IMG/VR virus record: IMGVR_UViG_3300033153_005042
Span: 1 to 57,721 of that record
Length of the DNA stretch: 57,721 nt
DNA from: a virus
Taxonomy: Duplodnaviria > Caudoviricetes
Reading direction: 5' to 3' (one strand)
The notes below the pieces were generated by a model that was not told the DNA's origin, ran no database searches, and worked only from the letters and a program-made list of their open reading frames with translations. The position numbers were made by a program, and so were the translations under genes. Below, piece after piece: positions 5,159 through 32,924 of the stretch (position 1 is its first letter; every line of letters starts with the position of its first letter).

Positions 5159-5372
5159 TTTTTTTCCTTTCGTCTAGTACGTCTTGTAGTACCATTGAAC
5201 ACGCTTTGTGAAACATAAGCTTATCCTTTAATACCATGATACGTCTAGCTAAGTCAATATCTTTTTTGTTTTTCTTAGTATTATTAAGTACTTCCAATTC
5301 TGTCGTTGTGGCTAAAGACTCAGCCTTATGGTCTGTCATCTTATTTATTATTATTTGTATTAACGTTTTCAT
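5148..5372 (-). CDS. Hypothetical protein
   Basis: Helical 74 aa ORF in the operon. Confidence 0.55.
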   Translation of the reverse strand: MKTLIQIIINKMTDHKAESLATTTELEVLNNTKKNKKDIDLARRIMVLKDKLMFHKACSMVLQDVLDERKKNEK

Positions 5373-5601
5373 AAATAGCCTTTGCTAGCTGGGTGTTAAG
5401 AGGTAGTAACTGACTTGTTCTGTAAAGTACTTTGTCCTCTACTAACGTAAATGAAACTTCTACACAATAAGGCTCAATGTCATTGGCAAATCTTACTATC
5501 TCTCCAACCATCCCTAAGAACTTCTGAAAATGTAAGGAAGATTCGTTAATTACTACTACTCTACTGCCTATCTTAAGTTCGTTGTCCATTAATCCCACCA
5601 T
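5341..5601 (-). CDS. KOW/SH3-like mini-protein with C-terminal tag
   Basis: LKIGSRVVV...TQLAKAIYE followed by a short extension. Confidence 0.7.
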   Translation of the reverse strand: MVGLMDNELKIGSRVVVINESSLHFQKFLGMVGEIVRFANDIEPYCVEVSFTLVEDKVLYRTSQLLPLNTQLAKAIYENVNTNNNK

Positions 5602-6164
5602 TTAGTGTGATGCTTTTTAATATGGTTGAACAAATACTCAGCGTCTTGCTTTTCCATATAATCAGAGTGAAGATACGCTTTCGTGCAAGCCTTTTCAAAT
5701 TGCTTTTTTTGCTGTTTCGTTAAATCTCTTTCAAATTTTTTGGTCATGCCTCTTTCATTGAACTCAAATTCCCAACTTCCATACTTCTTGTCTACGAGTT
5801 TCAAGGAGTTCTCTAAATGTTCGCTGTTGTTAAGCCTTTTTAGTAATACTCTAGCTATTTTTATACTGTGTGCAGTTTTGTCAGAATCTACGTGATGTCC
5901 TCTGACTGCCATGTAATTTTCCATACCTTGGAGTTGGAATTCCATCAACCTAAACAAGTAGCCTTGGTCAAATTCCCTAGTTCCCCAAATTACAGGCAGC
6001 CACCTAAACAATCTCCTAACGTTCTCAAAAAAACCTAAAGGTTTGACTATAATTATGTCTGACACTGAAAACCATAGATCCTCTAAGTGCATTTTCCATG
6101 CAGGGATTGGAGTTCCTGTAGCACTCAGCATAGATCTTTTTATTTTTCTAAAGGTTCTGCTCAT
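5589..6164 (-). CDS. Phage hypothetical protein
   Basis: 191 aa; RWLPVIWGTREFD...HTKWWD pattern I recall from other phage proteins of unknown function. Confidence 0.65.
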   Translation of the reverse strand: MSRTFRKIKRSMLSATGTPIPAWKMHLEDLWFSVSDIIIVKPLGFFENVRRLFRWLPVIWGTREFDQGYLFRLMEFQLQGMENYMAVRGHHVDSDKTAHSIKIARVLLKRLNNSEHLENSLKLVDKKYGSWEFEFNERGMTKKFERDLTKQQKKQFEKACTKAYLHSDYMEKQDAEYLFNHIKKHHTKWWD

Positions 6165-6421
6165 GAGTAGATACTTTCTGCTAATTGTGTGTAGATAATT
6201 AACTCGTCCTCAAACCAATTGGACTCCCAATCGCCTTCAGCTGTACTACTGAACGCAACTGTATAACCTTTTCTTCTGTGAAGGTTGTGAACAGGAGATC
6301 CCCAAAGTTCTGCTATGATCCCCTTTTTACCCACTGTTGCAACAAGATCTACAGCCTCGTATTCTGACTCGATCACTAACACTTCGTCACCTATCGCATA
6401 TTTGTGTTTATTACTATCCAT
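6161..6421 (-). CDS. KOW/SH3-like mini-protein with tag
   Basis: KYAIGDEVLV...TQLAESIYS; start refined to the coupled ATG. Confidence 0.7.
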   Translation of the reverse strand: MDSNKHKYAIGDEVLVIESEYEAVDLVATVGKKGIIAELWGSPVHNLHRRKGYTVAFSSTAEGDWESNWFEDELIIYTQLAESIYS

Positions 6422-6629
6422 AAAGCGACTCCGATAGGTTTCCTGTTGGTAGTAGTTCTTCAAACCAAAAATAACGGGCTTTTAGATCGCAGTTTTCTAC
6501 AAATATAACCTTAGCGTAATCCTCGTATACTTCATCAATACCAACAACTCCTTCATACTTATTGAGTCCATCGTTCCTTGGAAACTTTGAGGTGACGAGT
6601 ACTCTCTGTCCCACCTTAAACTTACTCAT
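6414..6629 (-). CDS. KOW/SH3-like mini-protein with tag
   Basis: MSKFKVGQRVLV...GNLSESLYG. Confidence 0.75.
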   Translation of the reverse strand: MSKFKVGQRVLVTSKFPRNDGLNKYEGVVGIDEVYEDYAKVIFVENCDLKARYFWFEELLPTGNLSESLYG

Positions 6630-7101
6630 AAATAGCTCCCATCAGATTACCTTCTGGCCAAGCTGCGCTGCTTAATACCATTAAAAATTTACTCGTATTA
6701 GCGTCTTTATGATAGATTTCTATGCGGCGGACGCACTCACTTAGGTCGGAGCTATTATCACTTGCCGCTCCTGCCAACATTCTGAAAAACAAACCGTCTA
6801 TCGTTTCGCCAGTTTTTACATAATCGTATTTTATGATTTGTAGCTCGGCTACGCTGTAGCCGTTAGAAAATACCTTTTCTAATTTTTTCTCAAACTGCTT
6901 AAGTTTTATTTTATGCGCTCTTAATGGAGTGCTCTTAATTAGTTCTAAGAGTCCGTGGCATATTGTGACCTTGTCACAGAGAGCGAATAATATATCACAA
7001 CACTTCAGACTGTTTCCTTTTTGAAACGCTACTAAAAACTGACTCCTGATCACTTCAGTACCTTCGGTACGTTGTATATTATTTTTGTTCCTTTTTTCCA
7101 T
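6622..7101 (-). CDS. Helical hypothetical protein with tag
   Basis: Not SH3-like; ends EGNLMGAIYE. Confidence 0.6.
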   Translation of the reverse strand: MEKRNKNNIQRTEGTEVIRSQFLVAFQKGNSLKCCDILFALCDKVTICHGLLELIKSTPLRAHKIKLKQFEKKLEKVFSNGYSVAELQIIKYDYVKTGETIDGLFFRMLAGAASDNSSDLSECVRRIEIYHKDANTSKFLMVLSSAAWPEGNLMGAIYE

Positions 7102-7913
7102 ACAAACTTAGTCCATTTTATATTATGTTTTGTTACTACTCTAGTAACCATCTGTTGAATAGCTTGCTTGCTTACTCCCGACTCTTTAGCCACGTCCACC
7201 AAAGTCACATTATCGTAATACACACGTTTCATAATAACTTGTTGTTTCTCTGTCAGCTTTGACAAACTCTTCGATAAGAATTCCCTAACTATAGCATATT
7301 CAGACACTGTTGTCAAGGCTGCATAATACTCGTACTTAGCTCTTGACTGATTGTTAATATCCAATTCCTTAGCTATATACTTAAAGTCTCTCCTATCATA
7401 CAGATGCAATTTAATTACAGCCCTTCGCCTATCTGATAATGCGTCCCAAGGTATGTTAGCGGTAAATGTGGTAGTATTTCCGTTATCTGTTATTGTGTAT
7501 ACACTGTCAAAAGGTTCGTTTGCCGAAGTTTTTATAGCTACGTTACGATCTCTATTAAGGTAGTCAGTCACTTGATTGCAAGGTTTTTTGCAGCTATCGA
7601 AAATTTTGCAGTTAGCGCAGTCAGTCTCAATAAATAGTAAATCATTTTCGATTTTGTTCGTTTTCGTCAGCACTTCCAAGTAAGGAAAAGCTGACTTTGA
7701 CTTCCATGGAAGCTCTCTCCCTAAACATTTCTTAGAAAAACATACCTTCCTTTTACTACATTCTCCTAATACGTCGTAGCCATACTCAGCTATTGATTCT
7801 TGCTTGATAGCTTCTAGAATAGCTTGTGAGCAGTCTTTAGGTATTAGGTGTTCTATTGGGTTAGATACGCATACAGCCGTTCTGTGAGACTGTTTGAAGC
7901 TTTCATCACTCAT
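7050..7913 (-). CDS. Cys-rich protein with two sigma70-region-4-like HTH repeats
   Basis: LSDRRRAVIKLHLYDRRDFKYIAKELDI and LTEKQQVIMKRVYYDNVTLVDVAKESGVSKQAIQQ; N-terminal Cys clusters. Confidence 0.65.
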   Translation of the reverse strand: MSDESFKQSHRTAVCVSNPIEHLIPKDCSQAILEAIKQESIAEYGYDVLGECSKRKVCFSKKCLGRELPWKSKSAFPYLEVLTKTNKIENDLLFIETDCANCKIFDSCKKPCNQVTDYLNRDRNVAIKTSANEPFDSVYTITDNGNTTTFTANIPWDALSDRRRAVIKLHLYDRRDFKYIAKELDINNQSRAKYEYYAALTTVSEYAIVREFLSKSLSKLTEKQQVIMKRVYYDNVTLVDVAKESGVSKQAIQQMVTRVVTKHNIKWTKFVWKKGTKIIYNVPKVLK

Positions 7914-8146
7914 AAATAAATAGCCTTTCCTAGCTCCGTAGAAAATGTTAACCAGCTCTCACAAAAATACCATTCTGCTCCCTCTAAGAGGTATATAACA
8001 TCCTCTTGACCTAGTACGCATTCCCGTATTTTTTGTACGGTTCCGTCAAACGAGTTCATTTCTCCAGTCCACGTAGGATGTGTCCTAACGTTTTTAGGTT
8101 TTTTTACTATTATTTGTTGTCCTTCTTTGTATTTATGTTTACTCAC
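7910..8146 (-). CDS. SH3-like mini-protein with tag (KPK..W..M subfamily)
   Basis: Ends STELGKAIYL. Confidence 0.75.
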   Translation of the reverse strand: MSKHKYKEGQQIIVKKPKNVRTHPTWTGEMNSFDGTVQKIRECVLGQEDVIYLLEGAEWYFCESWLTFSTELGKAIYL

Positions 8147-8363
8147 CGTAAATAGCCTCCGTTAATTCTCCTACAGGATATAACCAATCACAACTAAAAG
8201 CATAAGGTACTCCCTTAAGAAGGTAACTTAGACCTTCTCGTTGGCTTTGGTTAACTTCTTGTACGGTTTTGTCATATTTATCCATATTACTTATCCACGA
8301 CGGGTAAGCGTCGGTATTTTTTGGTCGTATGACTAGTACTGACTCTCCCACTTCAAACTTCAT
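8139..8363 (-). CDS. SH3-like mini-protein with tag (KPK..W..M subfamily)
   Basis: Ends PVGELTEAIYGE. Confidence 0.75.
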   Translation of the reverse strand: MKFEVGESVLVIRPKNTDAYPSWISNMDKYDKTVQEVNQSQREGLSYLLKGVPYAFSCDWLYPVGELTEAIYGE

Positions 8364-8373
8364 AGCAAACCTC

Positions 8374-8601
8374 TTAAGTATAAATAGCTGACGCCAACTC
8401 AGTACAGTGTTTCATCCGTGAAGGGATATACCTAAGAACTTCTATACTAGTTCCAGTACTCACTGTCATTGCGTGACCGTTCGATTTTAGTATTTTGCAA
8501 GGGTGGCCAGCGTGTATCAACATTACGTGATCTCTCTCGTACCCAGCTTTTATATCTTTTAAAAACATTACGATATCGCCCTGCTTAAACTCAGTCCTCA
8601 T
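8374..8601 (-). CDS. SH3-like mini-protein with tag
   Basis: FKQGDIV...TELASAIYT. Confidence 0.7.
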   Translation of the reverse strand: MRTEFKQGDIVMFLKDIKAGYERDHVMLIHAGHPCKILKSNGHAMTVSTGTSIEVLRYIPSRMKHCTELASAIYT

Positions 8602-8824
8602 AAATAGCCTCTCCTAGTTCTCCTATAGGCATTAACCAGTCAGGGTGGTAGTAATACTCATCCCCTTGTAACTTGTAGTATAGTCCGTCCTTTGAGTAGA
8701 TACTCTGAATAGTTTTGTGTTTAACGTCCATAGCATTACACCACGGTAATTGATCATACTCAAGGTGCTTATTTTTCTCAGGTTTTGTCACCAATACTTT
8801 ATCACCTACTTTAAACTTACTCAT
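8591..8824 (-). CDS. SH3-like mini-protein with tag (KPK..W..M subfamily)
   Basis: MSKFKVGDKVLV...PIGELGEAIYED. Confidence 0.75.
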   Translation of the reverse strand: MSKFKVGDKVLVTKPEKNKHLEYDQLPWCNAMDVKHKTIQSIYSKDGLYYKLQGDEYYYHPDWLMPIGELGEAIYED

Positions 8825-9056
8825 AGATAGCATTTCCTAAGTCAGTAAGAGGTGTATAGTCGCTCTCGAAATCTGTAACGAAAATAGTTACAATATCTCC
8901 GCAAGATCTGTCAATAAAAAGATCATAGTCATCAGACCAAACACGTAAAGGATCTCTAAGCAGCTCTGCTGCTACCTCCTCTTTATCTATTCTGATAACC
9001 TTAACGACGTCTTTATACTTAACGTCAATATAACTGTCACCTATCCTAATCTCCAT
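8817..9056 (-). CDS. SH3-like mini-protein with tag (KD.VKV..DP..W subfamily)
   Basis: Ends PLTDLGNAIYE. Confidence 0.7.
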   Translation of the reverse strand: MEIRIGDSYIDVKYKDVVKVIRIDKEEVAAELLRDPLRVWSDDYDLFIDRSCGDIVTIFVTDFESDYTPLTDLGNAIYE

Positions 9057-9276
9057 ACAACGCCTCACCCAAACGTCCTACGGGAATTAGCCAATCTTGG
9101 TGGTAGTAGTAACCATTGTTCACTAAACCGTAATAACCGTTTAGGTAGTCTTGTACAATCTGAATAGTTTTATCATAAATGTCCATAGACTCGCACCAAC
9201 CATAGCCGTCTGTATTGTGCGAGAATTGTTTAGGTTTTCTGACCAACACTCTCTGTCCCTTCTTAAACTTATTCAT
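9046..9276 (-). CDS. SH3-like mini-protein with tag (KPK..W..M subfamily)
   Basis: Ends PVGRLGEALYGD. Confidence 0.75.
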   Translation of the reverse strand: MNKFKKGQRVLVRKPKQFSHNTDGYGWCESMDIYDKTIQIVQDYLNGYYGLVNNGYYYHQDWLIPVGRLGEALYGD

Positions 9277-9472
9277 ACAAAGCCTTAGCTAATTCTGAAG
9301 TAGCTATTTCATCAAAACTCCACCACAACACTCTTCCGTTTTTGTGTTCCACTTCAACTGCGTTAACAAACTCGGACACTACTATTCCTACTGTTCCTAT
9401 ATACGCATCGTACCGATCTTCGCCAATGTTTTTTATTACTACCGCCTTACCGCCTACTTTAAGCTTACTCAT
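9269..9472 (-). CDS. KOW/SH3-like mini-protein with tag
   Basis: MSKLKVGGKAVV...TSELAKALYE. Confidence 0.75.
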   Translation of the reverse strand: MSKLKVGGKAVVIKNIGEDRYDAYIGTVGIVVSEFVNAVEVEHKNGRVLWWSFDEIATSELAKALYE

Positions 9473-9680
9473 AAATAGCCTTTCCTAGTTCGCTACTCCT
9501 AATATCGAGAGTTTTTAGGAAGGGTTCTTTGTGTTGCTGTCTATAGTGATCTGAATCCATACGAAATTCCAACATGCTCAAGCAGTTTTTTATGTGTGAG
9601 GTTTCCATATCACAAATTCTTATCATAACTCCTGTACGCATCTTCCATACCAAAGGGTCAAATTCTTTGTAAGCTTTCAT
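9465..9680 (-). CDS. Non-SH3 small protein with tag
   Basis: WKMRTG..I.ICDMETSHIKNCLSML core; ends SSELGKAIYE. Confidence 0.7.
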   Translation of the reverse strand: MKAYKEFDPLVWKMRTGVMIRICDMETSHIKNCLSMLEFRMDSDHYRQQHKEPFLKTLDIRSSELGKAIYE

Positions 9681-11079: not shown

Positions 11080-12378
11080 TTAATTGTCCAGTTTTTTCTT
11101 CACTGTTACTGTTGTTCTAGCTCCCCATTCGTATTGAGGCTGCGACCCACTCTCTAAACAAGCCCAAAGAACTGGTACTTTTGGTTTCTTTACTGCATCT
11201 ACGTCCCAATTCTCCATATCAGAAAACATAATAATTCCGTCAACTTCTAATTCCTTAGCCTTATTGAAAGGTGGTGCGAAAGCTGTTCCTCCTCGACCTT
11301 TGGCTTTCTGTAACTTATTGCCCTTTTCCATTCTGTACGTGTTGTGTACTTGAGTGTCGAAGTCAATAATGTATAGTACTACGTCTTGTTTAGTGATATT
11401 GTAAAGCTCTGCGCCAAATTGTCCTAGCTCTTCGTCACTGACGCTGCCAGAAGCGTCTACCATACACGCTAAGGTAAGTCTTTGATATGTAGTATTCCCA
11501 GAGTACATCGTCCCGTAGCGACGATTTCTGCGCTTTCTAGAGGGTTCTACCACAATCTCAGCAGTCCTAGCTACAAATCTACGTAAATCTGATTTCCAGT
11601 CTCTAGGCTTGTAGTGTAATGCTTCTATTGCTGCCAACACGTCGCCAGATATATTACCAGCTTCTCTACCTCCTACAGCCTCTACTGCTTTCCCTACCAC
11701 TTGTTTGATTTTTTCAGTGATATACTCTGGATCGTTACTTCCTTTTTGCCATATCGAATGATCGTCTATTGTCTGTCCACCAGATTTTTTATCTTCTGGT
11801 TGTTCTTTCTCCAACTTCTTGATGATATCATAGTAATACTCAGTGCTTTTTAAGTTTTCTACTTTGATGCCATACTGTTTAGCTTCTTTTTTCAAATCTT
11901 TTACAAGGCAAGGTCTTGATATAACAACTTTACCATCATCACCTTTGACTGCGTTTCCGTCTTTATCAAAAATCTTAAACTTTTGCGGTAAGTTAGGTAA
12001 ATATTCATTGATAGCGTGATCTCCTGCCACGTTCAATCTACCAGCGTTCTTATTGGCTTCTATTTTATCCTCAAAAGTCATATCCTCCCATTTTGTTTTG
12101 TAGGTGGAAGGTTCTAACTCTGCGAACCTTGCAAAATGGTTATATATAACGTGTCCGCACTCATGTTTTAGGATGTCTACTTGTGCAGCTAACGTTAGGT
12201 CTTTCCAAAAATGAGGGTTAACCACTAAGTTGACTGTTTCATTGACATACACACCGATAGTTGGGATATTGTAGTCATATTGCCTAGTCATATTAAGTAG
12301 TAAGCTGGCGAAAAATGGTTCTGTGTGAACTAGTTCCATCATTGAACGTTCTAGTATGTTTTCTGAATATTCCATCAA
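11080..12378 (-). CDS. DUF2201-type metallopeptidase-like/VWA protein
   Basis: LKHECGH, DHAINE, DDHSIW, MIDAS DASGS, GRGGTAF, FSD. Confidence 0.85.
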   Translation of the reverse strand: MMEYSENILERSMMELVHTEPFFASLLLNMTRQYDYNIPTIGVYVNETVNLVVNPHFWKDLTLAAQVDILKHECGHVIYNHFARFAELEPSTYKTKWEDMTFEDKIEANKNAGRLNVAGDHAINEYLPNLPQKFKIFDKDGNAVKGDDGKVVISRPCLVKDLKKEAKQYGIKVENLKSTEYYYDIIKKLEKEQPEDKKSGGQTIDDHSIWQKGSNDPEYITEKIKQVVGKAVEAVGGREAGNISGDVLAAIEALHYKPRDWKSDLRRFVARTAEIVVEPSRKRRNRRYGTMYSGNTTYQRLTLACMVDASGSVSDEELGQFGAELYNITKQDVVLYIIDFDTQVHNTYRMEKGNKLQKAKGRGGTAFAPPFNKAKELEVDGIIMFSDMENWDVDAVKKPKVPVLWACLESGSQPQYEWGARTTVTVKKKLDN

Positions 12379-14741: not shown

Positions 14742-14791
14742 CTTCTCACCTTTATCATCACGCTCAGTTTTGAGTGCTTATTAAGTATTAA

Positions 14792-15364: not shown

Positions 15365-15385
15365 AGTATTTCCTCTACCTTAAGT

Positions 15386-23191: not shown

Positions 23192-23680
23192 AAATGAAAT
23201 TCGATTTAATTCCGTTTCGTAAATGAAAATGGATTTCATTCCGTTTCGTAGACATTGACTACTTTTCCAGAATTTTTTCCGTTCGGATGATTCGGATGAT
23301 TCGGACGCAGGATTGCCTTTGGCATAGAAATTGCGTTAGCAAGAACCGTGCCAGTTCCGCCCATAGCAAGAACCGTGCCAGCTGGAAACTGTCCAGAAAC
23401 TTGACACCTGTAAACCTTCAAGAACCGTGCCAGCTAAAAAACCCAGTCCGGATAGGCAGTTACAGTACGGGTGTTAGAATCCTGACACGTTGCGAAAATG
23501 TACATTGTAACCAACTGATATCACTACTAATTTTCGGGTGACCAACGATTAGACACCTTTGGTTAAGGATTAGACACTAGCAAGAATCGTGCCAGCTAAT
23601 TCTCTAGTCCGGATAGGGGGGTTACTGGTATGGCTATAGTCCGTATAAGTACTTACAGCTATGGCATAAGTGTTGCATAT
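23191..23680. repeat. Repeat-dense divergent control region
   Basis: CAAGAAyCGTGCCAG x4 (23338, 23365, 23417, 23579), TTCGGAYG x3, GTCCGGATAGG x2, IHF-like site, AAATGAAAATG boxes. Confidence 0.8.
23662..23677 (+). promoter_or_regulatory. sigma54-type -24/-12 element
   Basis: TGGCATAAGTGTTGCA about 40 bp before the Gp88-like start. Confidence 0.75.
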
Positions 23681-23717
23681 AGGTATATACAGCAATGCAG
23701 CTGTAGGAGGTAACAAT

Positions 23718-24380: not shown

Positions 24381-24406
24381 TCCTTAGACACTATTGAGCT
24401 GGTACG

Positions 24407-24547
24407 TGCAACAACCGTGCCAGTTCTTAATTTTCGGGCATAGTCCGGATAGGCACTTACAGAATATACACCTGTCAATTCCTTATACACCATGACTACC
24501 CCTAACATACTGTTATCACTATAGCCACACTTGGCACACATACTGCA
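24407..24547 (+). promoter_or_regulatory. Intergenic module 1: reverse sigma54 site / GTCCGGATAGG / TGT-N11-ACA / IHF-like / forward sigma54
   Basis: Reverse site 24407-24422; box 24443; forward TGGCACACATACTGCA 24532-24547. Confidence 0.75.
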
Positions 24548-24575
24548 TTACTATAGATAGAAGGAGGGACTAGAT

Positions 24576-24722
24576 GTGAATATTATAGACCTAATACTTA
24601 TAGTAATAACCAGCATACTGTTTATAAGTTTTCTGTATAGGCTTCATAAGCTAGGAACTATGTTAGACAAAATAACGGAGGTATACAATGACCAACAAAG
24701 CACATTTAACAGCAATAAGTAG
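24576..24722 (+). CDS. 48-aa single-pass membrane protein
   Basis: GTG start after GGAGG; IIDLILIVITSILFISFLY. Confidence 0.5.
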   Translation: MNIIDLILIVITSILFISFLYRLHKLGTMLDKITEVYNDQQSTFNSNK

Positions 24723-25125
24723 AAATAGCCCTAGCGTACCTATGAGACGTTTAAACAAAGCAGGAAGGCTAGGAGCTAAAAGAATGCTAGACTTTGGCTG
24801 TGGTAGAGGTTTGGACGCTACAACGTACGGTCTAGACAAGTATGACCCTCATTATTACCCTGAGAAAGACTGGAAAGTAGCTAAGTATGATGTTATTACA
24901 TGTAATTATGTATTGAACGTTATACCTACTAAGGAGGAACGTACCGCAGTCATAGAGGATATTAGAAACCTGTTAACAAAAGGAGGTATTGCCTACATAA
25001 CTGTAAGAAGAGACATAAAAACACAAGGTTACACTAAGAGAGGGACATTTCAAGAAAATATAACCCTTAACCTAGCTAAACTATGGGAGAATTCTAGCTA
25101 TTGCACATACGTGTTACATTATTAA
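24688..25125 (+). CDS. Class I SAM-dependent methyltransferase
   Basis: LDFGCGRG, YDP, YDVITCNYVLNVI. Confidence 0.82.
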   Translation: MTNKAHLTAISRNSPSVPMRRLNKAGRLGAKRMLDFGCGRGLDATTYGLDKYDPHYYPEKDWKVAKYDVITCNYVLNVIPTKEERTAVIEDIRNLLTKGGIAYITVRRDIKTQGYTKRGTFQENITLNLAKLWENSSYCTYVLHY

Positions 25126-25130
25126 CCCTT

Positions 25131-25298
25131 AGCAAGAACTGTGCCAGTTATTACTGGCGCTTTCTTCTGTAGGTTGTCGTCCGGATAGGTAGTTACGTAA
25201 AGTGTCAATTTATTGTGTACAGGTGTATAATGCTTGGTCAGTTAGGTAAGGTGTAAGTACTTGATATTGCTATAGCTAGACATGGCATGGGTTGTGCA
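25131..25298 (+). promoter_or_regulatory. Intergenic module 2
   Basis: Reverse site and hairpin from 25131; GTCCGGATAGGTAGTTAC 25179; IHF consensus TAAGTACTTGATA 25254-25266; forward TGGCATGGGTTGTGCA 25283-25298. Confidence 0.78.
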
Positions 25299-25326
25299 TT
25301 ATATAATAGTGAAAGGAAGGTGATTT

Positions 25327-25578
25327 ATGCAAGTACACGGAACAATACAATGGCACGACGATAAGGGTTGGGTTACTCATGATATCGAGTACGAAGCTAC
25401 TCTAGAGATAGAGAAGAACTACGGTTGTGACGCTGATGGTAATAGAGGTATCAAGATAGCCTATATATCCGATTACGATTACGAACTACCTTATAGCGAT
25501 ATGTCAGACAAGGACAAAGCTGAAATATACGAACTAGTAGAAGAACATGCAGCAGAGCAAGAACCCTACAACATTTAA
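25327..25578 (+). CDS. Acidic hypothetical protein
   Basis: 83 aa; YGCDADGNRG motif. Confidence 0.65.
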   Translation: MQVHGTIQWHDDKGWVTHDIEYEATLEIEKNYGCDADGNRGIKIAYISDYDYELPYSDMSDKDKAEIYELVEEHAAEQEPYNI

Positions 25579-25589
25579 AAGGAGTTATT

Positions 25590-26165
25590 ATGACTAAGGC
25601 AAAAAAAGTTACTGTTATTCAACCATCTACCAATTTTGGAGGATTGTTAGATATCAAGTTAGGGATGAAAGACGTTATTGACATTATCATGCAAGAAGAG
25701 GAGGATAAACTCACTGCTGAATTAGAACAAGCTATAGTACTAGCTACACAAGCGCAAAAGAATAAGGAGGATTACATAACGGCTATGAAGAGTAAACTGG
25801 AAAAATCATTCCTAGAATTGGTAGCCGCCGCTTTTGGATTGAAAGAACAGGATTGTACCGCTAGTAACTATTCTTATAGAGATAATATTGAAATATCCGT
25901 AACTCATGATAAATCTGACCTTTCTGTAAATAAAAGGTTCCCTTACACCAAAAAATACCTCAAAGGCAGAATCAAGTTAGGTAAAATTTGCAACGATTTA
26001 CAGGACATCGTCTGGCGGTGTGAGCAACGTGTGACACAACTCAATAAGAAATCGAGGAAAGCTAGGACTTTGATCGTCAAACAATTACTTGCCAATACGC
26101 CCGAAGGTGCTACTTTATTACAGCAAGTTACCAAAGCTAAACAATTATTAATAACCCCTAAATAA
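25590..26165 (+). CDS. Coiled-coil hypothetical protein
   Basis: 191 aa, GGAG RBS. Confidence 0.7.
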   Translation: MTKAKKVTVIQPSTNFGGLLDIKLGMKDVIDIIMQEEEDKLTAELEQAIVLATQAQKNKEDYITAMKSKLEKSFLELVAAAFGLKEQDCTASNYSYRDNIEISVTHDKSDLSVNKRFPYTKKYLKGRIKLGKICNDLQDIVWRCEQRVTQLNKKSRKARTLIVKQLLANTPEGATLLQQVTKAKQLLITPK

Positions 26166-26169
26166 CCTT

Positions 26170-26340
26170 AGCAAGAAGTATGCCAGTTAACGCTGGTATA
26201 TTTTCTACAACCTACTGTCCGGACTATGACTACCTTATCCGTAGTGTCTACCATTTTTAGACACCTGACCAATCCTTAAACAGTCTTGCTTACCCTAACT
26301 AGCTGATATTACTAGCACAGGGCTTGGCACACAATCTGCA
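26170..26340 (+). promoter_or_regulatory. Intergenic module 3
   Basis: Reverse site and hairpin from 26170; GTCCGGAC 26217; IHF-like TAACTAGCTGATA; forward TGGCACACAATCTGCA 26325-26340. Confidence 0.75.
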
Positions 26341-26383
26341 TTATATATAGTACAAGGCAATCAAGCCTTATAGGAGGTTCATT

Positions 26384-26722
26384 ATGAAAGCTATTTTAAT
26401 CGACGTAGTAAAAAGGGCGGTTACTCAGATTGATATCCCAGCAGGTATCGAAGCAATCAAACAACAGCTCGGCGTTAGCTGTTTTACAGTTGTCTGTCCT
26501 TTAGACAGTTCGGACGCCGTCTATTGTGACGACGAAGGATTACTAAATAACCCACAAGATTTTTTCACCTTGGGCAATTACCCTCAGCCTATCGCTGGTA
26601 ACGGCTTAATTCTTGGTACAGATTCTGAAGGCCGCTCGGTAGACTGTGAAGCCTTGCTAGAAGATATTCAAAACGACGTTATTTTTATGGACTTGGGAGC
26701 GGTGCTCGCAAACCACGCATAA
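26384..26722 (+). CDS. DUF3846-like protein
   Basis: VYCDDEGLLN...IAGNGLILG. Confidence 0.65.
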   Translation: MKAILIDVVKRAVTQIDIPAGIEAIKQQLGVSCFTVVCPLDSSDAVYCDDEGLLNNPQDFFTLGNYPQPIAGNGLILGTDSEGRSVDCEALLEDIQNDVIFMDLGAVLANHA

Positions 26723-26728
26723 CCTCCT

Positions 26729-26898
26729 TTCAAGAAGTGTGCCAACTTTGTTGGTGCATTTCGCTTAACCTTTCATAGTCCGGACAGGTAGTTACAGGCT
26801 AGTGTCAATTTATTATATACAACTGTCAATTCCTTAGACAGATAGTCACCCAGTAACTAGGTGTTATCACTAGGTAGGGACTTGGCATACTACCTGCA
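26729..26898 (+). promoter_or_regulatory. Intergenic module 4
   Basis: Reverse site and hairpin from 26729; GTCCGGACAGGTAGTTAC 26778; TGTCAATTCCTTAGACA; IHF-like TAACTAGGTGTTA; forward TGGCATACTACCTGCA 26883-26898. Confidence 0.75.
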
Positions 26899-26924
26899 TT
26901 AGTAATAGTGAAAGGAGTACTAAC

Positions 26925-27044
26925 ATGGACAAAAGAGACATAGGCGACATCGTATTAATATTCGTACTAGTGACAGGGATCGGAACAATCGGATTCTTAG
27001 CAGCTTTAGCGACAGTAAAATTATTAAGTCTGGGAGGATACTAA
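26925..27044 (+). CDS. 39-aa membrane protein
   Basis: Manual translation MDKRDIGDIVLIFVLVTGIG...; AAGGAG RBS; stop overlaps the next ATG. Confidence 0.55.
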   Translation: MDKRDIGDIVLIFVLVTGIGTIGFLAALATVKLLSLGGY

Positions 27045-27250
27045 TGAAATTACTACCGAATACTAAGTACACCACTAGGGACGGCACTGAAGTGCTAATA
27101 ACAGACGTTAACACTGAAAATGGCACTAGTTACAAGATTACTGGTAATATTGTCGACAGCTCGGTTAAGATGTCGTGGTTGGATAACGGATCATATTTAG
27201 CCCCAACAGTTAAACACTCATTCGACATAACCCAAGGAGAGAATCCATGA
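27044..27250 (+). CDS. Hypothetical protein (KYxTRxG family)
   Basis: Paralog of 17629-17976. Confidence 0.62.
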   Translation: MKLLPNTKYTTRDGTEVLITDVNTENGTSYKITGNIVDSSVKMSWLDNGSYLAPTVKHSFDITQGENP

Positions 27251-27442
27251 CTACCTCAGAAAAACAAACAGAATACCAAGGATTAACAGATCACCCTAAG
27301 GAACGTTCAGCAAGATTAGACAGATTAAGAGCTATGAGCAAGGCTGTAACAAAGACTACAACCCCACCCCCTACAATAAACTAGGGGGGTAGTTTTACCC
27401 ATATACATATACCCTATATAACACACCACTAAGGAGATTATC

Positions 27443-27772
27443 ATGGAAGCATTCAAAAGAACAACTAAGTCCGCCTCAGGCACTAGCTTAAAAACACATA
27501 TCACAGTATCTTATCCAAAGCTTATTGAGCTATTTGGTCAACCCGACGAAGGTTGCGGTTATAAGGTCAGCGGAGAGTTCACGTTTGAGGCCTCTAATGG
27601 AGAGCTGGTGACGTTGTACGACTGGAAGAGTACCTCACTATACGACGGCCTCTCACAGTCTCCTCAGCAGCTTAGAGAGCGTACTAGCGTAGAGCTGAAT
27701 ATTGGTGGCAATAACGCTATCACAGCTCAGATATTCGCTTTATGGTTACAAGGGAGTTTAGCTACTGCGTAG
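27443..27772 (+). CDS. Phage hypothetical protein
   Basis: GTSL..I..SY..L...FG.P...KV..E...TLYDWK pattern; AAGGAG RBS. Confidence 0.68.
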   Translation: MEAFKRTTKSASGTSLKTHITVSYPKLIELFGQPDEGCGYKVSGEFTFEASNGELVTLYDWKSTSLYDGLSQSPQQLRERTSVELNIGGNNAITAQIFALWLQGSLATA

Positions 27773-27840
27773 GTGAAATGAAAATGAAATTCGATCCGTT
27801 TCCCTTTCGGTAGTGTTTTTACTGCTGGAGGGGAAAAATC

Positions 27841-27872
27841 GGTAATGAGAATGGTAATGAGAATCATTCTCA
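27841..27872. promoter_or_regulatory. Fur-box-like operator
   Basis: GGTAATGAGAATCATTCTC at 27853-27871 matches GATAATGATAATCATTATC at 16/19; perfect TGAGAAT-C-ATTCTCA; preceded by a 12-bp duplication. Confidence 0.6.
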
Positions 27873-27880
27873 AAATCGCC

Positions 27881-27986
27881 TGTGGTATTTTTGACACATG
27901 TCAAAATCCTGACATGTTAGAATCCTGACATGTTAGAATCCTGACACCCTGTCAAATTTTTTGACACTTTGACCAAATTATGGTCA
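27881..27986. repeat. Tandem TGT-N10-ACA boxes
   Basis: TGTCAAAATCCTGACA then TGTTAGAATCCTGACA x2 at 16-bp period (27899-27946), with related boxes on both sides. Confidence 0.8.
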
Positions 27987-27996
27987 CATCTATATA

Positions 27997-28042
27997 TGCA
28001 AGTACCATGCCAGCAACCCACCATAGCAATATCAACCACTTA
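27997..28042 (-). promoter_or_regulatory. sigma54-type element plus IHF site with no obvious downstream ORF
   Basis: TGGCATGGTACTTGCA (28012-27997); IHF consensus TATCAACCACTTA 28030-28042. Confidence 0.65.
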
Positions 28043-28561
28043 GCTCAAATCGACCAATCCTTAGACAGTTTGTGTATATTCTTTACACACTATCGCTTGG
28101 CCTGTTTATAGCATTAGCAAGAACCATGCCAGCGACCCAGATTTTTCTTGGTACGTATATTGCATACGTCCGACCTATCCGGATAAGCAAGTATCATGCC
28201 AACCGTAAAACATAACCTACCGTAATTACAGTAATTCGCTCCAGATCGCCGAGGAAATTTATTACATACTAGTACTAGCAAACTAGCCTAAACGCTCTAG
28301 AGGCTTTATATAGGCGTTATAGAGGCTATATTGTTCTACTATATATACCAGTTTTTGTCATGCCTAGTAAACCTGTAACCTATAGATATTACAGCGTTAT
28401 TCGGCCTCCGCAGAAATAGCCCATTTATTCTCATATTTTAACCTTGCAATATCAGAGACTTACAAGGTTTATTCACTTTTTTTTACTTTACCTCTCAAGT
28501 TATTGCACCCAATGCCGATAGGTAAGTATAACAAGAAACAAACAACAACAAAGGAGTTAAC

Positions 28562-29248: not shown

Positions 29249-29386
29249 TATTACAGGGAATTAATATAAAAAGGTGTATAATTCAAGGGGGTTACGCCCT
29301 TTTGAGCGCCGAAATGTCCAGACTAGGGTCACACATGCTTTAAAGAAAATTTTTAGAAAAAAAATAAAAAAGATTCCGCTAAGGAA

Positions 29387-29632
29387 TCATAAATATATAG
29401 TTCTGGCTAGTTCTGAAAAGGGTACCACTTCTTCCTGGATGGCGTACAGAACGCCTTCTTGCTGATGTGGAACATCTTCAGACGGTAAGGGCCTTGACGC
29501 TCCTATAACGTTTGAGAGACAGTAAATGTCGTTCATATTTGAAAAATAGTAGATATGAGTGATTTGTCCTTTAGCACCTTTAAAAGGACCTTTAATAATC
29601 AGCACCTCATCCCCAACAACGTATTTTTTCAT
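29387..29632 (-). CDS. KOW-like mini-protein with tag
   Basis: VGDEVLIIKGPFKGAKGQI (classic KOW)...FSELARTIYL. Confidence 0.75.
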   Translation of the reverse strand: MKKYVVGDEVLIIKGPFKGAKGQITHIYYFSNMNDIYCLSNVIGASRPLPSEDVPHQQEGVLYAIQEEVVPFSELARTIYL

Positions 29633-29671
29633 ATTGACTCCATAATAGTGGTACATGTTGATATTACTGCG

Positions 29672-29890
29672 TTATTCGTACAAAGCTTTTGACAACTCGG
29701 TAGACAGCCCTACAATCTCATCTAAAAACACTATACGCTCTTCAACCTGTCCGCCCACCCTTAGAGACACTAAAAAGTTTTGATTACTAACGTTACCACC
29801 TTCTAGACCTTTAAGTATAAAACCTGTCGTAATACTTCCTAAATACCACAAGTTACAAATAATCTCATCACCAACAGTAAAATCTCTCAT
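29672..29890 (-). CDS. SH3-like mini-protein with tag
   Basis: Ends STELSKALYE. Confidence 0.7.
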   Translation of the reverse strand: MRDFTVGDEIICNLWYLGSITTGFILKGLEGGNVSNQNFLVSLRVGGQVEERIVFLDEIVGLSTELSKALYE

Positions 29891-30093
29891 AAGTATAAAG
29901 CCTTTGTTAACTCTGTAACAAACCCTACTATCGAAGGTCCCCAAACTACCGTCCTATTACCCCAATCATCGTCTGAATCAACTATTACATAAAAACCCTG
30001 GTATACATCCAAAGTACCTACTGCATACCCACTCAGCAATGGACGCTTGTATATGACCTTATCACCTTTTTTGTATTTATTATCTTTTGTCAT
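29887..30093 (-). CDS. SH3-like mini-protein with tag
   Basis: YKKGDKVI...VTELTKALYL. Confidence 0.72.
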   Translation of the reverse strand: MTKDNKYKKGDKVIYKRPLLSGYAVGTLDVYQGFYVIVDSDDDWGNRTVVWGPSIVGFVTELTKALYL

Positions 30094-30132
30094 GTCAAAG
30101 GACCCATACTAATGTTATACTATTGTAAATAG

Positions 30133-30345
30133 TTACGTTGAACAGTACAAAGCTTCTGCCAACTCTCCACAAGGGACTAACTCTTTAGGCAATAGAACGT
30201 AAGGCTCATTTTCGTAAACAACTTTAACAACTCCGTCAGACCCGTAAGAAGCTACCTCAACTACAGAACCTTTAGGCAGCTTTGAATACTCTGAGTGGTA
30301 GGTGCCGTACACTACCACTAGCTTCTGACCTTTAGTGAACATCAT
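30133..30345 (-). CDS. SH3-like mini-protein with tag
   Basis: Ends PCGELAEALYCST. Confidence 0.72.
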   Translation of the reverse strand: MMFTKGQKLVVVYGTYHSEYSKLPKGSVVEVASYGSDGVVKVVYENEPYVLLPKELVPCGELAEALYCST

Positions 30346-30524
30346 AAGTATAAAGCCTCCGTTAGTTCTCCCACTACAGAAAGTTCACTAATAAACCAAT
30401 AACCTGTAATTTCTCCTAACTCTGGAGAACTTACTTCACACCCCCTCTCCCAACTGTTCACAACAGTTCCTATAAGACCTCTAGGTATGATCAACACTTC
30501 ATCTCCTACCTCAAATTCACTCAT
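30342..30524 (-). CDS. KOW/SH3-like mini-protein with tag
   Basis: FEVGDEVLI...VGELTEALYL. Confidence 0.72.
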   Translation of the reverse strand: MSEFEVGDEVLIIPRGLIGTVVNSWERGCEVSSPELGEITGYWFISELSVVGELTEALYL

Positions 30525-30927
30525 ATATAGCCTTTGTCATCTCAGTTCTTTCTAACACTTCTTCTAAGCTTACCCAAGTAGTACCTTCTGAATGAGCTAG
30601 TAATACCTCTAACTTATAGTCCATACAACCTTTGTTAATACTACCGAACTCAGACTCAGATATATAGAACTTTTGTATTAAGCAAGTACCTAGTCGGTTA
30701 TGATGTACTATAGAACCTTTATCATAAGGACACTCTTGCAAAGATTTTGATAAAGTCTTTAGAAGCTCCTTCTGATCACATAACATGTCAACAAGGGAAT
30801 TAATCTCCGTGCTTACTACCTCTTTACCAGGATTAAAAGACTTATTCACGCCTTGTTTTGGTGTAGACGCAGTATTACTAGTAGGAGTGTATAGGCCGCT
30901 GGCGCTATTGCTCAAAATATCATTCAT
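30517..30927 (-). CDS. Extended SH3-like protein with tag
   Basis: Ends RTEMTKAIYE. Confidence 0.68.
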   Translation of the reverse strand: MNDILSNSASGLYTPTSNTASTPKQGVNKSFNPGKEVVSTEINSLVDMLCDQKELLKTLSKSLQECPYDKGSIVHHNRLGTCLIQKFYISESEFGSINKGCMDYKLEVLLAHSEGTTWVSLEEVLERTEMTKAIYE

Positions 30928-31186
30928 ATAAAACTCCTGTTAACGCTCCGATGGGAACTATTGTGAATATTTTATTAAAACTGGAAATAGGCATACTTTG
31001 GCCTCCGCCGTCAGCAAATGCTATCCTAATATCTTTAGTAGAATCTCCAATATCTGCCAAGGAGTCAATGAACATATATCCTTTGTCTCTATCGTATACA
31101 CTGAGAATAGCCTCTATCAAAGCTCCTTTGTCTCTATACGGATAAGAACTAGTATTATTAATCTTGACGTACACAGTTTTACTCAT
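30920..31186 (-). CDS. Small protein with tag
   Basis: Ends PIGALTGVLYE. Confidence 0.65.
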   Translation of the reverse strand: MSKTVYVKINNTSSYPYRDKGALIEAILSVYDRDKGYMFIDSLADIGDSTKDIRIAFADGGGQSMPISSFNKIFTIVPIGALTGVLYE

Positions 31187-31406
31187 ATATAGCCTCACTA
31201 AGATCAGTAAGCAATGCTACTTCATCAACAGTAGTAATATACCTGTCTAAAGTATAACTTAAGTCGCCACACCTTACAGTAAACTGCTCATCAAACACGA
31301 CTTCAACCTCATCACTATTACCGTGATACTCATATTCACTCACAGTACCTGTAACTCCTTTACAAGTACCTTTAGTAAGTATAACTCTATCTCCAAGAAC
31401 AAACAT
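31179..31406 (-). CDS. KOW-like mini-protein with tag
   Basis: GDRVILTKGTCKGVTGTV...LTDLSEAIYE. Confidence 0.75.
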   Translation of the reverse strand: MFVLGDRVILTKGTCKGVTGTVSEYEYHGNSDEVEVVFDEQFTVRCGDLSYTLDRYITTVDEVALLTDLSEAIYE

Positions 31407-31756: not shown

Positions 31757-31969
31757 TTGAAAGTTAGTATGAAGAAGACTAATGTAATAAGGTTCCCTGA
31801 CGCTAAGTCTAGGAAACAGAGAGACAAACTCCGTAATGAAGACTACTATTCTGAGTTGACTAGTAGTAAACGTAAATCGTGGTTTACTTTTGCAGGGGTC
31901 ATGTTACTACTGTTGACATTGGGGCTGTCCCTAATATACCTAATATCATTGTTGATTCCCCTAAAGTAA
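31757..31969 (+). CDS. Membrane protein (C-terminal TM)
   Basis: NVIRFP N-terminus, hydrophobic C-terminus. Confidence 0.55.
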   Translation: MKVSMKKTNVIRFPDAKSRKQRDKLRNEDYYSELTSSKRKSWFTFAGVMLLLLTLGLSLIYLISLLIPLK

Positions 31970-31981
31970 GAATGGAGAGCT

Positions 31982-32260
31982 ATGACAAGACACGTATTTA
32001 AGCCTGGAGAATTTGCGTACTTCTCTGGAAAAGGAGAAATAGTAAGGATTGTGAGTAGTTACGATAAAAAAGGACTACTAGGCACAAAACAGGTTCTTAG
32101 GGTAATGAGCTTAAAAGATGTAGAGGCTTCCACTGGAAGACCTTCTAGATATATAGATTGTCCGATTTCTTCTATATTGCCGATAAAAGACGACGACGTA
32201 CAGCTTATGTTCAAGTTGTTGTATTTAACTGAGGAGTTCACTCTTCTAAGGTACTTGTAG
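31982..32260 (+). CDS. SH3-like small protein
   Basis: FKPGEFAY...FKLLYL near the C-terminus. Confidence 0.6.
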   Translation: MTRHVFKPGEFAYFSGKGEIVRIVSSYDKKGLLGTKQVLRVMSLKDVEASTGRPSRYIDCPISSILPIKDDDVQLMFKLLYLTEEFTLLRYL

Positions 32261-32367
32261 TAGGCGTCTTGTTGACATAGTGTATACGCCGTCTGTAAGA
32301 AGTCAGGTGATGAAAGCAGCTCTTTTGATCAGAGAAGCAGCGTGTTCACCTTTTACATATTAGAGGT

Positions 32368-32691
32368 GTGCTAGAATCCCTAGAGGGTCAGATTTTACTA
32401 CCTGGTGACAGTCAGGTCGAACTTCTTCATGTTATGAGGTTTACTGTGATAGGAGAGTTTGTAGAGTATCTAGGAGACTACTACATACTGGTAATGTGCA
32501 GTAATAGATACTACGGAGTAGTGACGCTACGCAGTAGCCCTTGTTCTCTGAAGGTTGTCCTAGTGATTGAACAAGCTTGCGCTAGCATCGTCATAGGAAA
32601 AAAAAGAACAATGCTGTTAACCTTATACGGCGATCCTGCGGATGTATCTGAGTACTATGTAGGTAATATCCTAGATCGGAGAGACTTGTGA
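32368..32691 (+). CDS. Hypothetical protein
   Basis: ORF coupled to 32688; start uncertain. Confidence 0.45.
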   Translation: MLESLEGQILLPGDSQVELLHVMRFTVIGEFVEYLGDYYILVMCSNRYYGVVTLRSSPCSLKVVLVIEQACASIVIGKKRTMLLTLYGDPADVSEYYVGNILDRRDL

Positions 32692-32924
32692 AAGTTGGAG
32701 ATTATTTTAGAATAAGCGTACCTAGAACAGAATCAAAGGTCATTTATCAATCAGTAGTATTGAGTTCAGATCAAGAGTGGGTATCTGCAGTAGTAGTGTA
32801 CCCTACTAGGTTAGCAAGACAACTAAAGAATTCAGGAGTATTTAAACTCCATTTGAATACTTTGAATATTGTGGTACTGGGGAACCCCAACGACAAACCT
32901 GTACTAAAGGCTATTTATGGCTAG
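32688..32924 (+). CDS. SH3-like mini-protein with divergent tag
   Basis: MKVGDYFRI...VLKAIYG. Confidence 0.65.
   Translation: MKVGDYFRISVPRTESKVIYQSVVLSSDQEWVSAVVVYPTRLARQLKNSGVFKLHLNTLNIVVLGNPNDKPVLKAIYG

Follow-up and report, generated by a model that had tools for sequence, protein, structure and literature searches.

Thirty-six small proteins of an uncultivated myophage end in the same short helical tail, and the 13 nucleotides that encode its last residues double at many junctions as the next gene's start region. The phage is represented by IMG/VR record IMGVR_UViG_3300033153_005042, a single contig of 57,721 bases that was analysed whole and is called the window here. The reading we prefer, with a probability of about 0.5, is that a fast-evolving accessory mini-proteome carries the tail as a common handle for interaction, with translational coupling as its secondary use.

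A C-terminal motif scan of the window's open reading frames (ORFs) gave 39 matches, from which three (at 21034, 35499 and 50492) were dropped as hydrophobic chance matches outside the arrays. The other 36 terminate with [LMV]xx[AVST][ILV]Y and a few residues more and share the consensus [GTS]-E-L-x-[EK]-A-[IL]-Y, followed by one residue in 24 ORFs, two in nine, and three, four and nine in one ORF each. A first-pass annotation of the same DNA had reported 37 tagged ORFs, 25 with one and nine with two residues after the Tyr; the shared tail stands, with slightly lower counts for the total and the first class. Thirty-five of the ORFs lie on the minus strand, at 5341–9680, 14800–22828 and 29387–31406, and one on the plus strand (Table 1). 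Numbering the Tyr as position 0, Gly, Thr or Ser occupies position -7 in 34 of the 36, Glu position -6 in 22, Leu position -5 in 33, Glu or Lys position -3 in 26 and Ala position -2 in 28, while Ile or Leu at -1 and the Tyr itself are present in all 36. The stricter motif L..[AV][IL]Y, placed at most four residues from the stop in ORFs of at least 40 amino acids (aa), occurs 28 times, compared with means of 0.23 (maximum 2) in 200 mononucleotide shuffles and 0.34 (maximum 4) in 200 triplet-block shuffles; 28 of its 31 occurrences anywhere in ORFs of that length are C-terminal. The tail is a two-turn amphipathic helix: Gly, Thr or Ser is the N-cap, a Glu follows, and Leu(-5), Ala(-2), Ile/Leu(-1) and Tyr(0) form the hydrophobic side. 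Five further ORFs (19190, 21560, 21805, 22050 and 22891) carry a second variant, [KRE]DSLEYAIF.

The end of the tail is also a start region. Within RAG GCT ATT TAT G, the word GAGG or AAGG is a Shine–Dalgarno (SD) sequence, CTATTT is a spacer of 6 nucleotides (nt), and the AT that closes the Tyr codon joins the following G as the next gene's ATG. At 21 of the 36 junctions the next ORF (at least 38 codons) starts from this ATG, with an SD-like word 4–17 nt upstream in 20 of those 21, and at five further junctions the next start overlaps the stop. Because the last four tail codons are dual-coded, the arrays are, judging by their layout, built for translational coupling. The residues after the Tyr follow from the same arrangement: ATG AGT AAR (M-S-K) read one frame off becomes TAT GAG TAA (Y-E-stop), and ATG GAG AGT AG (M-E-S) becomes Y-G-E-stop, so the stop falls one or two residues after the Tyr because those residues are the next protein's N terminus in a shifted frame. 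Likewise, Ala(-2) and Glu/Lys(-3) are nearly fixed because RAG-GCT supplies the SD. Codon choice is skewed accordingly with respect to 32 long genes of the window: GCT encodes Ala(-2) in 26 of 28 tails (background 43%, p=4e-8), GAG encodes Glu(-3) in 12 of 15 (34%), AAG Lys(-3) in 10 of 11 (33%), ATT Ile(-1) in 17 of 24 (35%) and TAT the Tyr in 26 of 36 (42%). Repeat families of 42–73 nt (D1, D3, D8, D10 and D20) extend across the tail into the opening codons of the gene that follows, and a search of viral contigs for the exact junction DNA pattern returned no matches. The overlap of SD, spacer and ATG, which the first-pass annotation underrated, accounts for the exact C-terminal position of the tail.

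Codon evidence nonetheless indicates that the peptide is conserved in its own right, beyond the overlap with ribosome-binding site and ATG, as had been proposed. The 33 Leu(-5) codons are spread over CTA (11), TTA (12), TTG (6), CTT (3) and CTG (1), giving proportions of synonymous (pS) and nonsynonymous (pN) difference of 0.90 and 0.14; the values at Glu(-6) are 0.91 and 0.37, and pN/pS over the flanking codons -12 to -8 is 0.91, all of these being indicative figures that pool non-independent paralog pairs at saturated sites. At Ala(-2) pS falls to 0.16, the mark of nucleotide constraint. The Tyr codon goes unused as a start in 15 of the 36 ORFs. The next start overlaps the stop in five of these (6161, 7910, 8139, 29887 and 30342), an SD and start follow the stop in three, and no suitable start lies within 70 nt in seven, including m29387. 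The Tyr codons singled out earlier at 18997, 20129, 29672 and 30133 are indeed all TAC, and none has an overlapping ATG. The DSLEYAIF tails stop before the next SD, and their Ser codons (TCC, TCG, TCG, AGC and TCT) include both TCN and AGC. Saturated synonymous sites at Leu and Glu, the 15 non-start Tyr codons, the non-overlapping DSLEYAIF tails and the persistence of the tail in relatives with the SD after the Tyr together argue that the peptide itself is selected.

Relatives ranked by capsid identity to the window carry the tail to different extents. In G006 (95%) seven of eight genes have it, two with Phe in place of Tyr, and in G007 (83%) it ends 11 of 14 consecutive genes (10 with Tyr and one with Phe), two more having His or Ser there. 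G001 (75%, GC content 31%, syntenic) has an array at 76793–81184 in which 11 of 14 genes end in [LIMV]xxx[ILMV]Y plus 1–5 residues and 13 of 14 in [LI]Y plus 1–5 residues; its early region holds more tails. On contig 4 of G012 (71%, 118,850 bases) 21 of 23 consecutive genes end in [TSND]ExxxLLY plus 1–3 residues, and several more arrays are present. G002 (70%) has about a dozen ends of the ...LYG type, and G003, G004 and G005 (57–66%) have no convincing tails. Counted with one pattern across genomes, [ED]xxxx[LIM]Y plus 1–4 residues per ORFs of at least 45 aa, tails number 26 of 255 in the window, 15 of 261 in G001 and 39 of 424 in G012, with 2 of 396 in G002, 2 of 466 in G003, 0 of 482 in G004 and 0 of 389 in G005. 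To judge from these ends, each lineage has its own flavour, ELxEAIY in the window, TExxxLLY in G012 and ELxKxLY in G001. In G001 the next start overlaps only 4 of 11 Tyr codons, the SD usually lies after the Tyr (K-K-D, S-R-I, K-R-D), and the Leu before the Tyr uses five codons. Relatives thus keep the tail with the SD elsewhere, which makes the peptide and nucleotide constraints separable.

A family hidden Markov model (HMM) run against 1.84 billion protein representatives gave 466 matches. Thirty-five representatives of 60–99 aa were taken from the best 150 of the 466; 16 are the window's own, and 18 of the 19 others are tailed, the exception being P0136. Ten HMM-matched representatives that were examined lie on JGI contigs about 12 kb long. 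P0003, P0015 and P0043 had no match in viral contigs, nor P0003 in metagenome contigs, and the contig search with P0015 otherwise found only L066, a distant tail-less relative. Across six counterpart pairs between the window and G006, tails are identical at 35 of 48 positions and bodies at 219 of 482, with the capsid at 95%; the mini-proteins of 29387–31406 are 24–68% identical to those of G006 (L057). One G006 member looks truncated: behind its 42-aa ORF (L057:441-569) comes a separate frame that ends in GKLAAALYE. Two mutually homologous proteins, at L057:771-1226 (minus strand) in G006 and L058:1644-2126 (plus strand) in G007, combine a membrane-like hydrophobic N terminus, a barrel-like part and the tail (GNLTEALFL and GDLTGALYED); they are absent from the window's cluster.

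The bodies in front of the tail are related in part. An HMM built from barrels only matches 20 of the 36 members at E<1e-7 and BLAST joins five more, the "IIVG" subtype, in keeping with the SH3-like N-terminal start noted in the first-pass annotation. The other 11 lie outside both the HMM and the BLAST cluster, so a homology common to all carriers was not found, with remote homology possible. Some of these 11 have a barrel-like start by eye, the C-terminal half of m30517 is barrel-like, and about six bodies (m6622, m9465, m14800, m17351, m22273 and m30920) look different. We modelled m8591 with AlphaFold2 from a 34-row alignment (mean predicted local distance difference test score, pLDDT, 89.7). 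It is predicted to be a five-stranded SH3-like barrel, its strands followed by a helix at residues 69–75, with a pLDDT of 75 for the last block. Foldseek places the Mib repeat of Mind bomb 1 at the top (4tse; probability 1.00, query TM-score (TMq) 0.65–0.66), together with archaeal L21e and classical SH3 domains, all at E-values above 0.001. Pfam SH3_15 scores 16.9 bits on m8591 (E=0.0079), below its cut-off of 24, and Pfam gave no SH3 match on nine other members. PHROGs returned only families of unknown function for 10 members, and the ESM Atlas only unnamed viral clusters for the family; among 50,697 isolate phage records, tblastn found no match to m8591. The family HMM also finds long proteins with 3–9 SH3-like repeats, some of which score for SH3_15. 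For m30920, a 3-row alignment gave an AlphaFold2 model (pLDDT 81.9) rich in beta structure, whose tail helix spans residues 79–86 within a block of pLDDT 59; Foldseek found no PDB match for it with TMq above 0.40. The multi-repeat proteins raised the possibility that a programmed frameshift at GCTATTTATG joins adjacent barrels; a slippery heptamer is not evident, and no dedicated test was made.

Tail likeness does not follow body relatedness. Tail DNA is identical at a mean of 14.8 of 24 nt in 38 pairs with related bodies and at 14.2 of 24 in 509 pairs with unrelated bodies, and m14800 and m16554, whose bodies are unrelated, share 22 of 24. Between genomes, homologous bodies carry the local flavour of each genome's tail in three of three pairs. 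Barrel homologues that lack the tail occur in G001, G003, G004 and G012 (for example G001_72961 and G004_98119), and P0136 is another.

We favour the handle because the bodies are dissimilar, tail and body do not co-vary, and each lineage has one flavour. In such a scheme the tail would present many fast-evolving small domains, mostly SH3-like barrels, to one shared partner; candidates are a host or phage hub, an unfoldase or protease (with the tail as adaptor tether or degron) and a targeting receptor. The handle would drift jointly within each phage lineage, and the start-region overlap would be a secondary economy, nearly fixed in the lineage of the window. A more specific form, which we hold a little less firmly, makes the tail a clade-wide address label on about 36 or more mini-proteins here and about 40–50 in the complete G012, read by a single receptor that co-evolves with the label by lineage, with the codons reused as the next gene's start region. 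That receptor could be a host hub, or else an unfoldase or protease serving timed removal or target delivery. A role for the tail in covalent chemistry through the Tyr hydroxyl was rejected, since the Tyr gives way to Phe in G006 and G007.

The docking handle on variable domains was also the proposal of the first-pass annotation, and its first half, a shared tail on dissimilar bodies, survives. The partner does not: none turned up in any analysis made here, and this counts against the handle. The annotation had named the MoxR-like AAA+ protein (12442) and the VWA protein (11080) as candidates, yet this AAA+ and VWA/HExxH pair is present both in G001, which has tails, and in G004, which has none, and is absent from G003. 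Genes of the window shared with G001 and found in neither G003 nor G004 are mostly small and of unknown function, along with the Erf-like protein, in a comparison where the window is part of a genome and G001 is estimated to be 56% complete. Co-folding two copies of m8591, as a test of self-association through the tail, gave no verdict (score 0.00, mark 0.42, run without controls) and speaks neither way on binding. In the VWA-type protein (11080–12378, minus strand), which lies beside the AAA+ gene, the HExxH word reads HECGH in the translation; its PHROG family is labelled HNH endonuclease, a label that looks misleading.

Further observations weigh on the same side. Ala(-2) and Glu/Lys(-3) are explained by the SD alone, and in G001, whose SD is located elsewhere, position -2 varies. 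The paralog pooling described above limits the pN/pS argument, and the claim that bodies are unrelated consists of failed sequence searches and one model built from three sequences. Two tail-less G004 barrels end in an amphipathic-looking stretch of different sequence, so the C-terminal helix may be an old structural part of the fold, and in the m8591 model it comes directly after the last strand (pLDDT about 75) and may pack on its own barrel. If each lineage expanded from one founder and the middles then diverged fast, the result could look like a shared tag.

Several of these points feed the strongest alternative, that the tail is a structural cap, the last helix of a diverging paralog family lying on its own barrel, with the C terminus held in place by the fold and the overlap. 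We regard it as rather unlikely, while giving it more weight than any other rival. It would suit the 25 of 36 bodies that belong to one SH3-like family, the AlphaFold2 helix straight after the last strand (at moderate confidence), the amphipathic-looking ends in G004 and an SD overlay that accounts for Ala(-2) and Glu/Lys(-3). Several apparently non-barrel members (m30920, m6622 and proteins of G006 and G007) also keep the strand-Pro-x-Gly lead-in of the barrels. A cap fits poorly with a tail on bodies without detectable similarity, including the non-SH3-like m30920 model, whose tail block has a pLDDT of 59, and with a likeness among tails that is independent of body relatedness. Nor does it predict one flavour per genome over all bodies, with homologous bodies taking the local flavour in all three pairs, or barrels that do without the tail.

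A junction cassette acting at the nucleotide level alone, as a start region or as a recombination or shuffling site with the peptide as by-product, is largely refuted and we consider it very improbable. RAG GCT ATT TAT G is fixed at synonymous sites, the 42–73 nt junction repeats span tail and next first codons, near-identical tail DNA sits on unrelated bodies (m14800/m16554), and genes for an Erf-like annealing protein and an exonuclease lie close by, all as such a cassette would have it. It leaves unexplained why Leu(-5) and Glu(-6) are kept at saturated synonymous sites, why 15 Tyr codons are not starts and the DSLEYAIF tails have no start-region overlap, why the Leu-Tyr core persists with five Leu codons in G001, where the SD follows the Tyr and 4 of 11 Tyr codons are overlapped, and why all members keep the same reading frame relative to the ATG.

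Two further ideas fare worse still. The ending resembles the hydrophobic-Tyr-X (HbYX) plug that docks into a protease ring (20S proteasome or HslV-like), a match the first-pass annotation had raised, since Ile/Leu-Tyr-X has the Tyr penultimate in 24 of 36 ORFs. The Tyr is not penultimate in the other 12 or in most relatives' tails (1–5 residues follow it in G001, G012 and G007, a single residue in 1 of 11 tails of the G001 array), Phe and rarely His or Ser replace it, the single residue after the Tyr comes from reading the next gene's M-S-K start in the shifted frame, and the carriers are monomer-sized mini-proteins of 60–160 aa and not ring ATPases; a plug of this type is thus highly improbable. 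Equally hard to credit is a nascent tail peptide that acts in the ribosome at termination to promote re-initiation at the overlapping start: the tail is always a few residues from the stop in tightly coupled arrays, but that distance varies (1–5, 9 and 13 residues), the tail is kept without a coupled start (m29387, m18997, m20129 and m30133), and its residues follow the pattern of an N-capped amphipathic helix.

Table 1 Tail-bearing ORFs, promoter-like words and repeats in the window, from ORF translations and the tail scan; barrel, match to the barrel-only HMM; IIVG, BLAST link.
Feature	C-terminal tail	Body	Position	Strand	Remark
m5341	...TQLAKAIYENVNTNNNK	barrel	5341-5601	-	next gene begins at TATG
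m6161	...TQLAESIYS	barrel	6161-6463	-	Tyr TAC; next ATG overlaps stop (TCATGA)
m6414	...GNLSESLYG	barrel	6414-6629	-	
m6622 (159 aa)	...GNLMGAIYE	no barrel HMM match	6622-7101	-	
m7910	...TELGKAIYL	barrel	7910-8146	-	ATG of sigma-like gene overlaps stop (TTATGA)
m8139	...GELTEAIYGE	barrel	8139-8363	-	Tyr TAC; next gene has GTG start
m8374	...TELASAIYT	barrel-like start, no HMM match	8374-8601	-	SD and ATG after stop; G002 homologue ends TEAAIVLFGGK
m8591	...GELGEAIYED	barrel, modelled	8591-8833	-	
m8817	...TDLGNAIYE	IIVG	8817-9068	-	
m9046	...GRLGEALYGD	barrel	9046-9276	-	
m9269	...SELAKALYE	barrel	9269-9472	-	
m9465	...SELGKAIYE	non-barrel	9465-9680	-	homologue search matched only itself
m14800	...SELGKAIYGELV	non-barrel	14800-15072	-	Tyr TAC
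m15065	...QELPKVIYD		15065-15364	-	G001 homologue ends KDLVKNLYL
m15648	...SELTDVIYGE	barrel	15648-15926	-	TGGCAC-N5-TTGC directly after
m16209	...GELGEAIYED	barrel	16209-16418	-	tail DNA as in m8591 at 23/24 nt
m16554	...SELGKAIYE	barrel	16554-16766	-	
m17351	...TDMANAIYL	non-barrel	17351-17632	-	SD and ATG after stop
m18997	...GALWSALYE	IIVG	18997-19221	-	Tyr TAC; no overlapping start; TGGCAC-N5-TTGC after
m19589	...GELAEVIYGD	IIVG	19589-19843	-	TATG opens frame of <38 codons
m19810	...GKLTEALYL	IIVG	19810-20028	-	Tyr TAC; SD and ATG after stop
m20129	...GGLSESLYCD	barrel	20129-20353	-	Tyr TAC; no start within 70 nt
m20343	...GELSEAIYGE	barrel	20343-20573	-	
m20566	...GELAEAIYE	IIVG	20566-20778	-	
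m20771	...GNLTEAIYE	barrel	20771-20971	-	
m22273	...GELFGALYGN	non-barrel	22273-22584	-	
m22562	...GELGRAIYE	barrel	22562-22828	-	
m29387	...SELARTIYL	barrel	29387-29656	-	last of array; hairpin and T-run after; no next start
m29672	...TELSKALYE		29672-29944	-	Tyr TAC; G006 counterpart ends TEMSKAIYL
m29887	...TELTKALYL	barrel	29887-30093	-	Tyr TAC; ATGA overlap
m30133	...GELAEALYCST	barrel	30133-30345	-	Tyr TAC; no start within 70 nt
m30342	...GELTEALYL	barrel	30342-30524	-	Tyr TAC; ATGA overlap
m30517 (136 aa)	...TEMTKAIYE	N-terminal extension and barrel-like half	30517-30927	-	counterparts in G006 and G007
m30920	...GALTGVLYE	non-SH3, beta-rich, modelled	30920-31198	-	
m31179	...TDLSEAIYE	barrel	31179-31406	-	
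m32688	...KPVLKAIYG		32688-32924	+	sole plus-strand member; G006 counterpart 88% identical
ORFs 21560, 21805, 22050, 22891	[KRE]DSLEYA[IL][FH]...		21560-23130	-	variant tail; stop before next SD and start
Fifth DSLEY-variant ORF			19190-19519	-	
Possible degenerate tail	...TELGNYYI		18682-18951	-	translation only
Possible DSLEY-type tail with extension	SLEAAVF..., ...SSLEAAVFLDVLSI		16870-17181	-	translation only
Inverted repeat GATTCC...GGAATC and T-run			29350-29390	-	directly after m29387 stop; looks like intrinsic terminator
TGGCAC-N5-TTGC copies, range 14488-28201			e.g. 23177-23191, 23339-23353, 23366-23380, 18980-18994, 15632-15646	-	
TGGCAC-N5-TTGC copies			23662-23676, 24532-24546, 26325-26339	+	
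AGCAAGAACCGTGCCAG repeats			23334-23440, 23575-23605, 24409-24430, 25127-25157, 26166-26196, 28118-28209		
29-nt and 58-nt repeat families (D17, D13), 23-28 kb region			23192-23249, 27782-27810, 7639-7667; 24464-24521, 26257-26314, 26815-26872		

The window carries terminase, major head protein and tail sheath genes on its plus strand. The minus strand encodes a primase-like protein, the Erf-like annealing protein, an exonuclease, a sigma-like protein, the MoxR-like AAA+ protein and the VWA/HExxH protein, and its accessory regions are densely filled with mini-genes. No tRNA genes were found. Capsids 49–95% identical to that of the window occur on 48 viral contigs, several of them 104–117 kb long with terminal repeats, so the window is about half of an uncultivated myophage genome; its myophage relatives, likewise uncultivated, span 104–119 kb. 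There is no near isolate phage among the matches listed, in which identity reaches at most 33.5% for the capsid and 29.3% for the AAA+ protein. Capsids 67–71% identical also appear on L085–L088 (two of them 113 and 119 kb), in metagenome-assembled genomes labelled Verrucomicrobiota, Saccharibacteria, Ignavibacteriaceae and Pseudobdellovibrionaceae; labels from four phyla look like mis-binning and are therefore uninformative on the host. On the plus strand, positions 37431–37763 match the full group I intron model of Rfam (RF00028, 77.8 bits). A 215-aa ORF (37765–38412) comes directly downstream of this intron, and nearby is a 530-aa ORF at 38579, which has no PHROGs match and whose position suggests a portal gene.

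The word TGGCAC-N5-TTGC, which we take to be the -24/-12 consensus of sigma-54 promoters, occurs in 24 copies with at most one mismatch compared with 1.72 expected in shuffles; nine are exact, and most are on the minus strand. Many copies read TTGCATATA and sit 30–45 nt upstream of an SD and start. One precedes the array start at 23130, and two directly follow tails without an overlapping start (m15648 and m18997). Enrichment recurs in G002 (15 vs 2.6) and G012 (11 vs 2.9) and is weak or absent elsewhere. The word may be the promoter type that drives the mini-gene arrays. The translation of the AAA+ gene at 12442 has no GAFTGA motif, and scans of 5–24 kb for sigma-70 promoters and terminators showed no excess. 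The repeat family AGCAAGAACCGTGCCAG (D9, D12 and D15) is the reverse complement of the same word with extra conserved flanks, and has four tandem copies about 26 nt apart at 23340–23440, in a gene-poor stretch between divergent modules.

If the handle is real, the shared peptide could be one phage route to handling an early mini-proteome, by delivery, tethering or timed destruction, and the tail could serve as a sequence marker for such proteins in metagenomes. The mini-proteins diverge far faster than the capsid (24–68% vs 95% identity), a pattern expected of host-interaction or counter-defence genes. Should the tail be no more than a structural cap, a large undescribed SH3-like phage family would still remain. 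The junction is in addition a natural example of dual coding, with 13 nucleotides under constraint both for the peptide and for the SD, spacer and start codon; since relatives separate the two constraints, each can be measured alone. The portions of the literature available to us hold no description of the family, and Pfam, PHROGs, the ESM Atlas and the isolate-phage collection give it no name, in agreement with the first-pass annotation. Its parts are known in kind (SH3-like barrel, coupled overlap, shared terminal signals), while their combination and the clade-wide tail appear undescribed.

Bacterial and phage genes often overlap and are coupled, with the downstream SD inside the end of the upstream coding sequence. 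The arrays follow this plan, the SD, 6-nt spacer and ATG of one gene lying in the last codons of the gene before it, with ATGA and TATG overlaps, but here one junction is reused at least 21 times and coincides with a peptide that is conserved even without overlap. The m8591 model resembles the SH3-like barrels of Mib repeats, SH3_15, KOW and L21e; unlike Mib and SH3_15 proteins, the phage proteins are single domains of 60–100 aa with an added conserved C-terminal helix. HbYX denotes the hydrophobic-Tyr-X C terminus of proteasomal activators, and 24 of the 36 tails share that ending, whereas the penultimate place is not kept, Phe stands in for Tyr, and the proteins that bear the tail are not ring ATPases. 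AAA+ proteases are served by adaptor tethers and degrons such as the C-terminal ClpX-binding tail of SspB, the ssrA tag and the C terminus of SulA, recognised by Lon. The likeness to these lies in the concept of a short C-terminal peptide on different bodies and one reading machine; unlike ssrA or the ClpX C-motif-1, the tails have no LAA-type end (they finish Y-E, Y-L or Y-G-E) and no linker joins body and tail. The T4 capsid-targeting sequence and the leaders of prochlorosin precursors are shared recognition peptides on many cargoes, and like them the tail is a short conserved peptide on many divergent products of one genome. Such sequences stand at the N terminus and are removed, or they label short peptides that are to be modified, whereas here a C-terminal helix sits on folded mini-domains in early-type arrays and bears no sign of processing.

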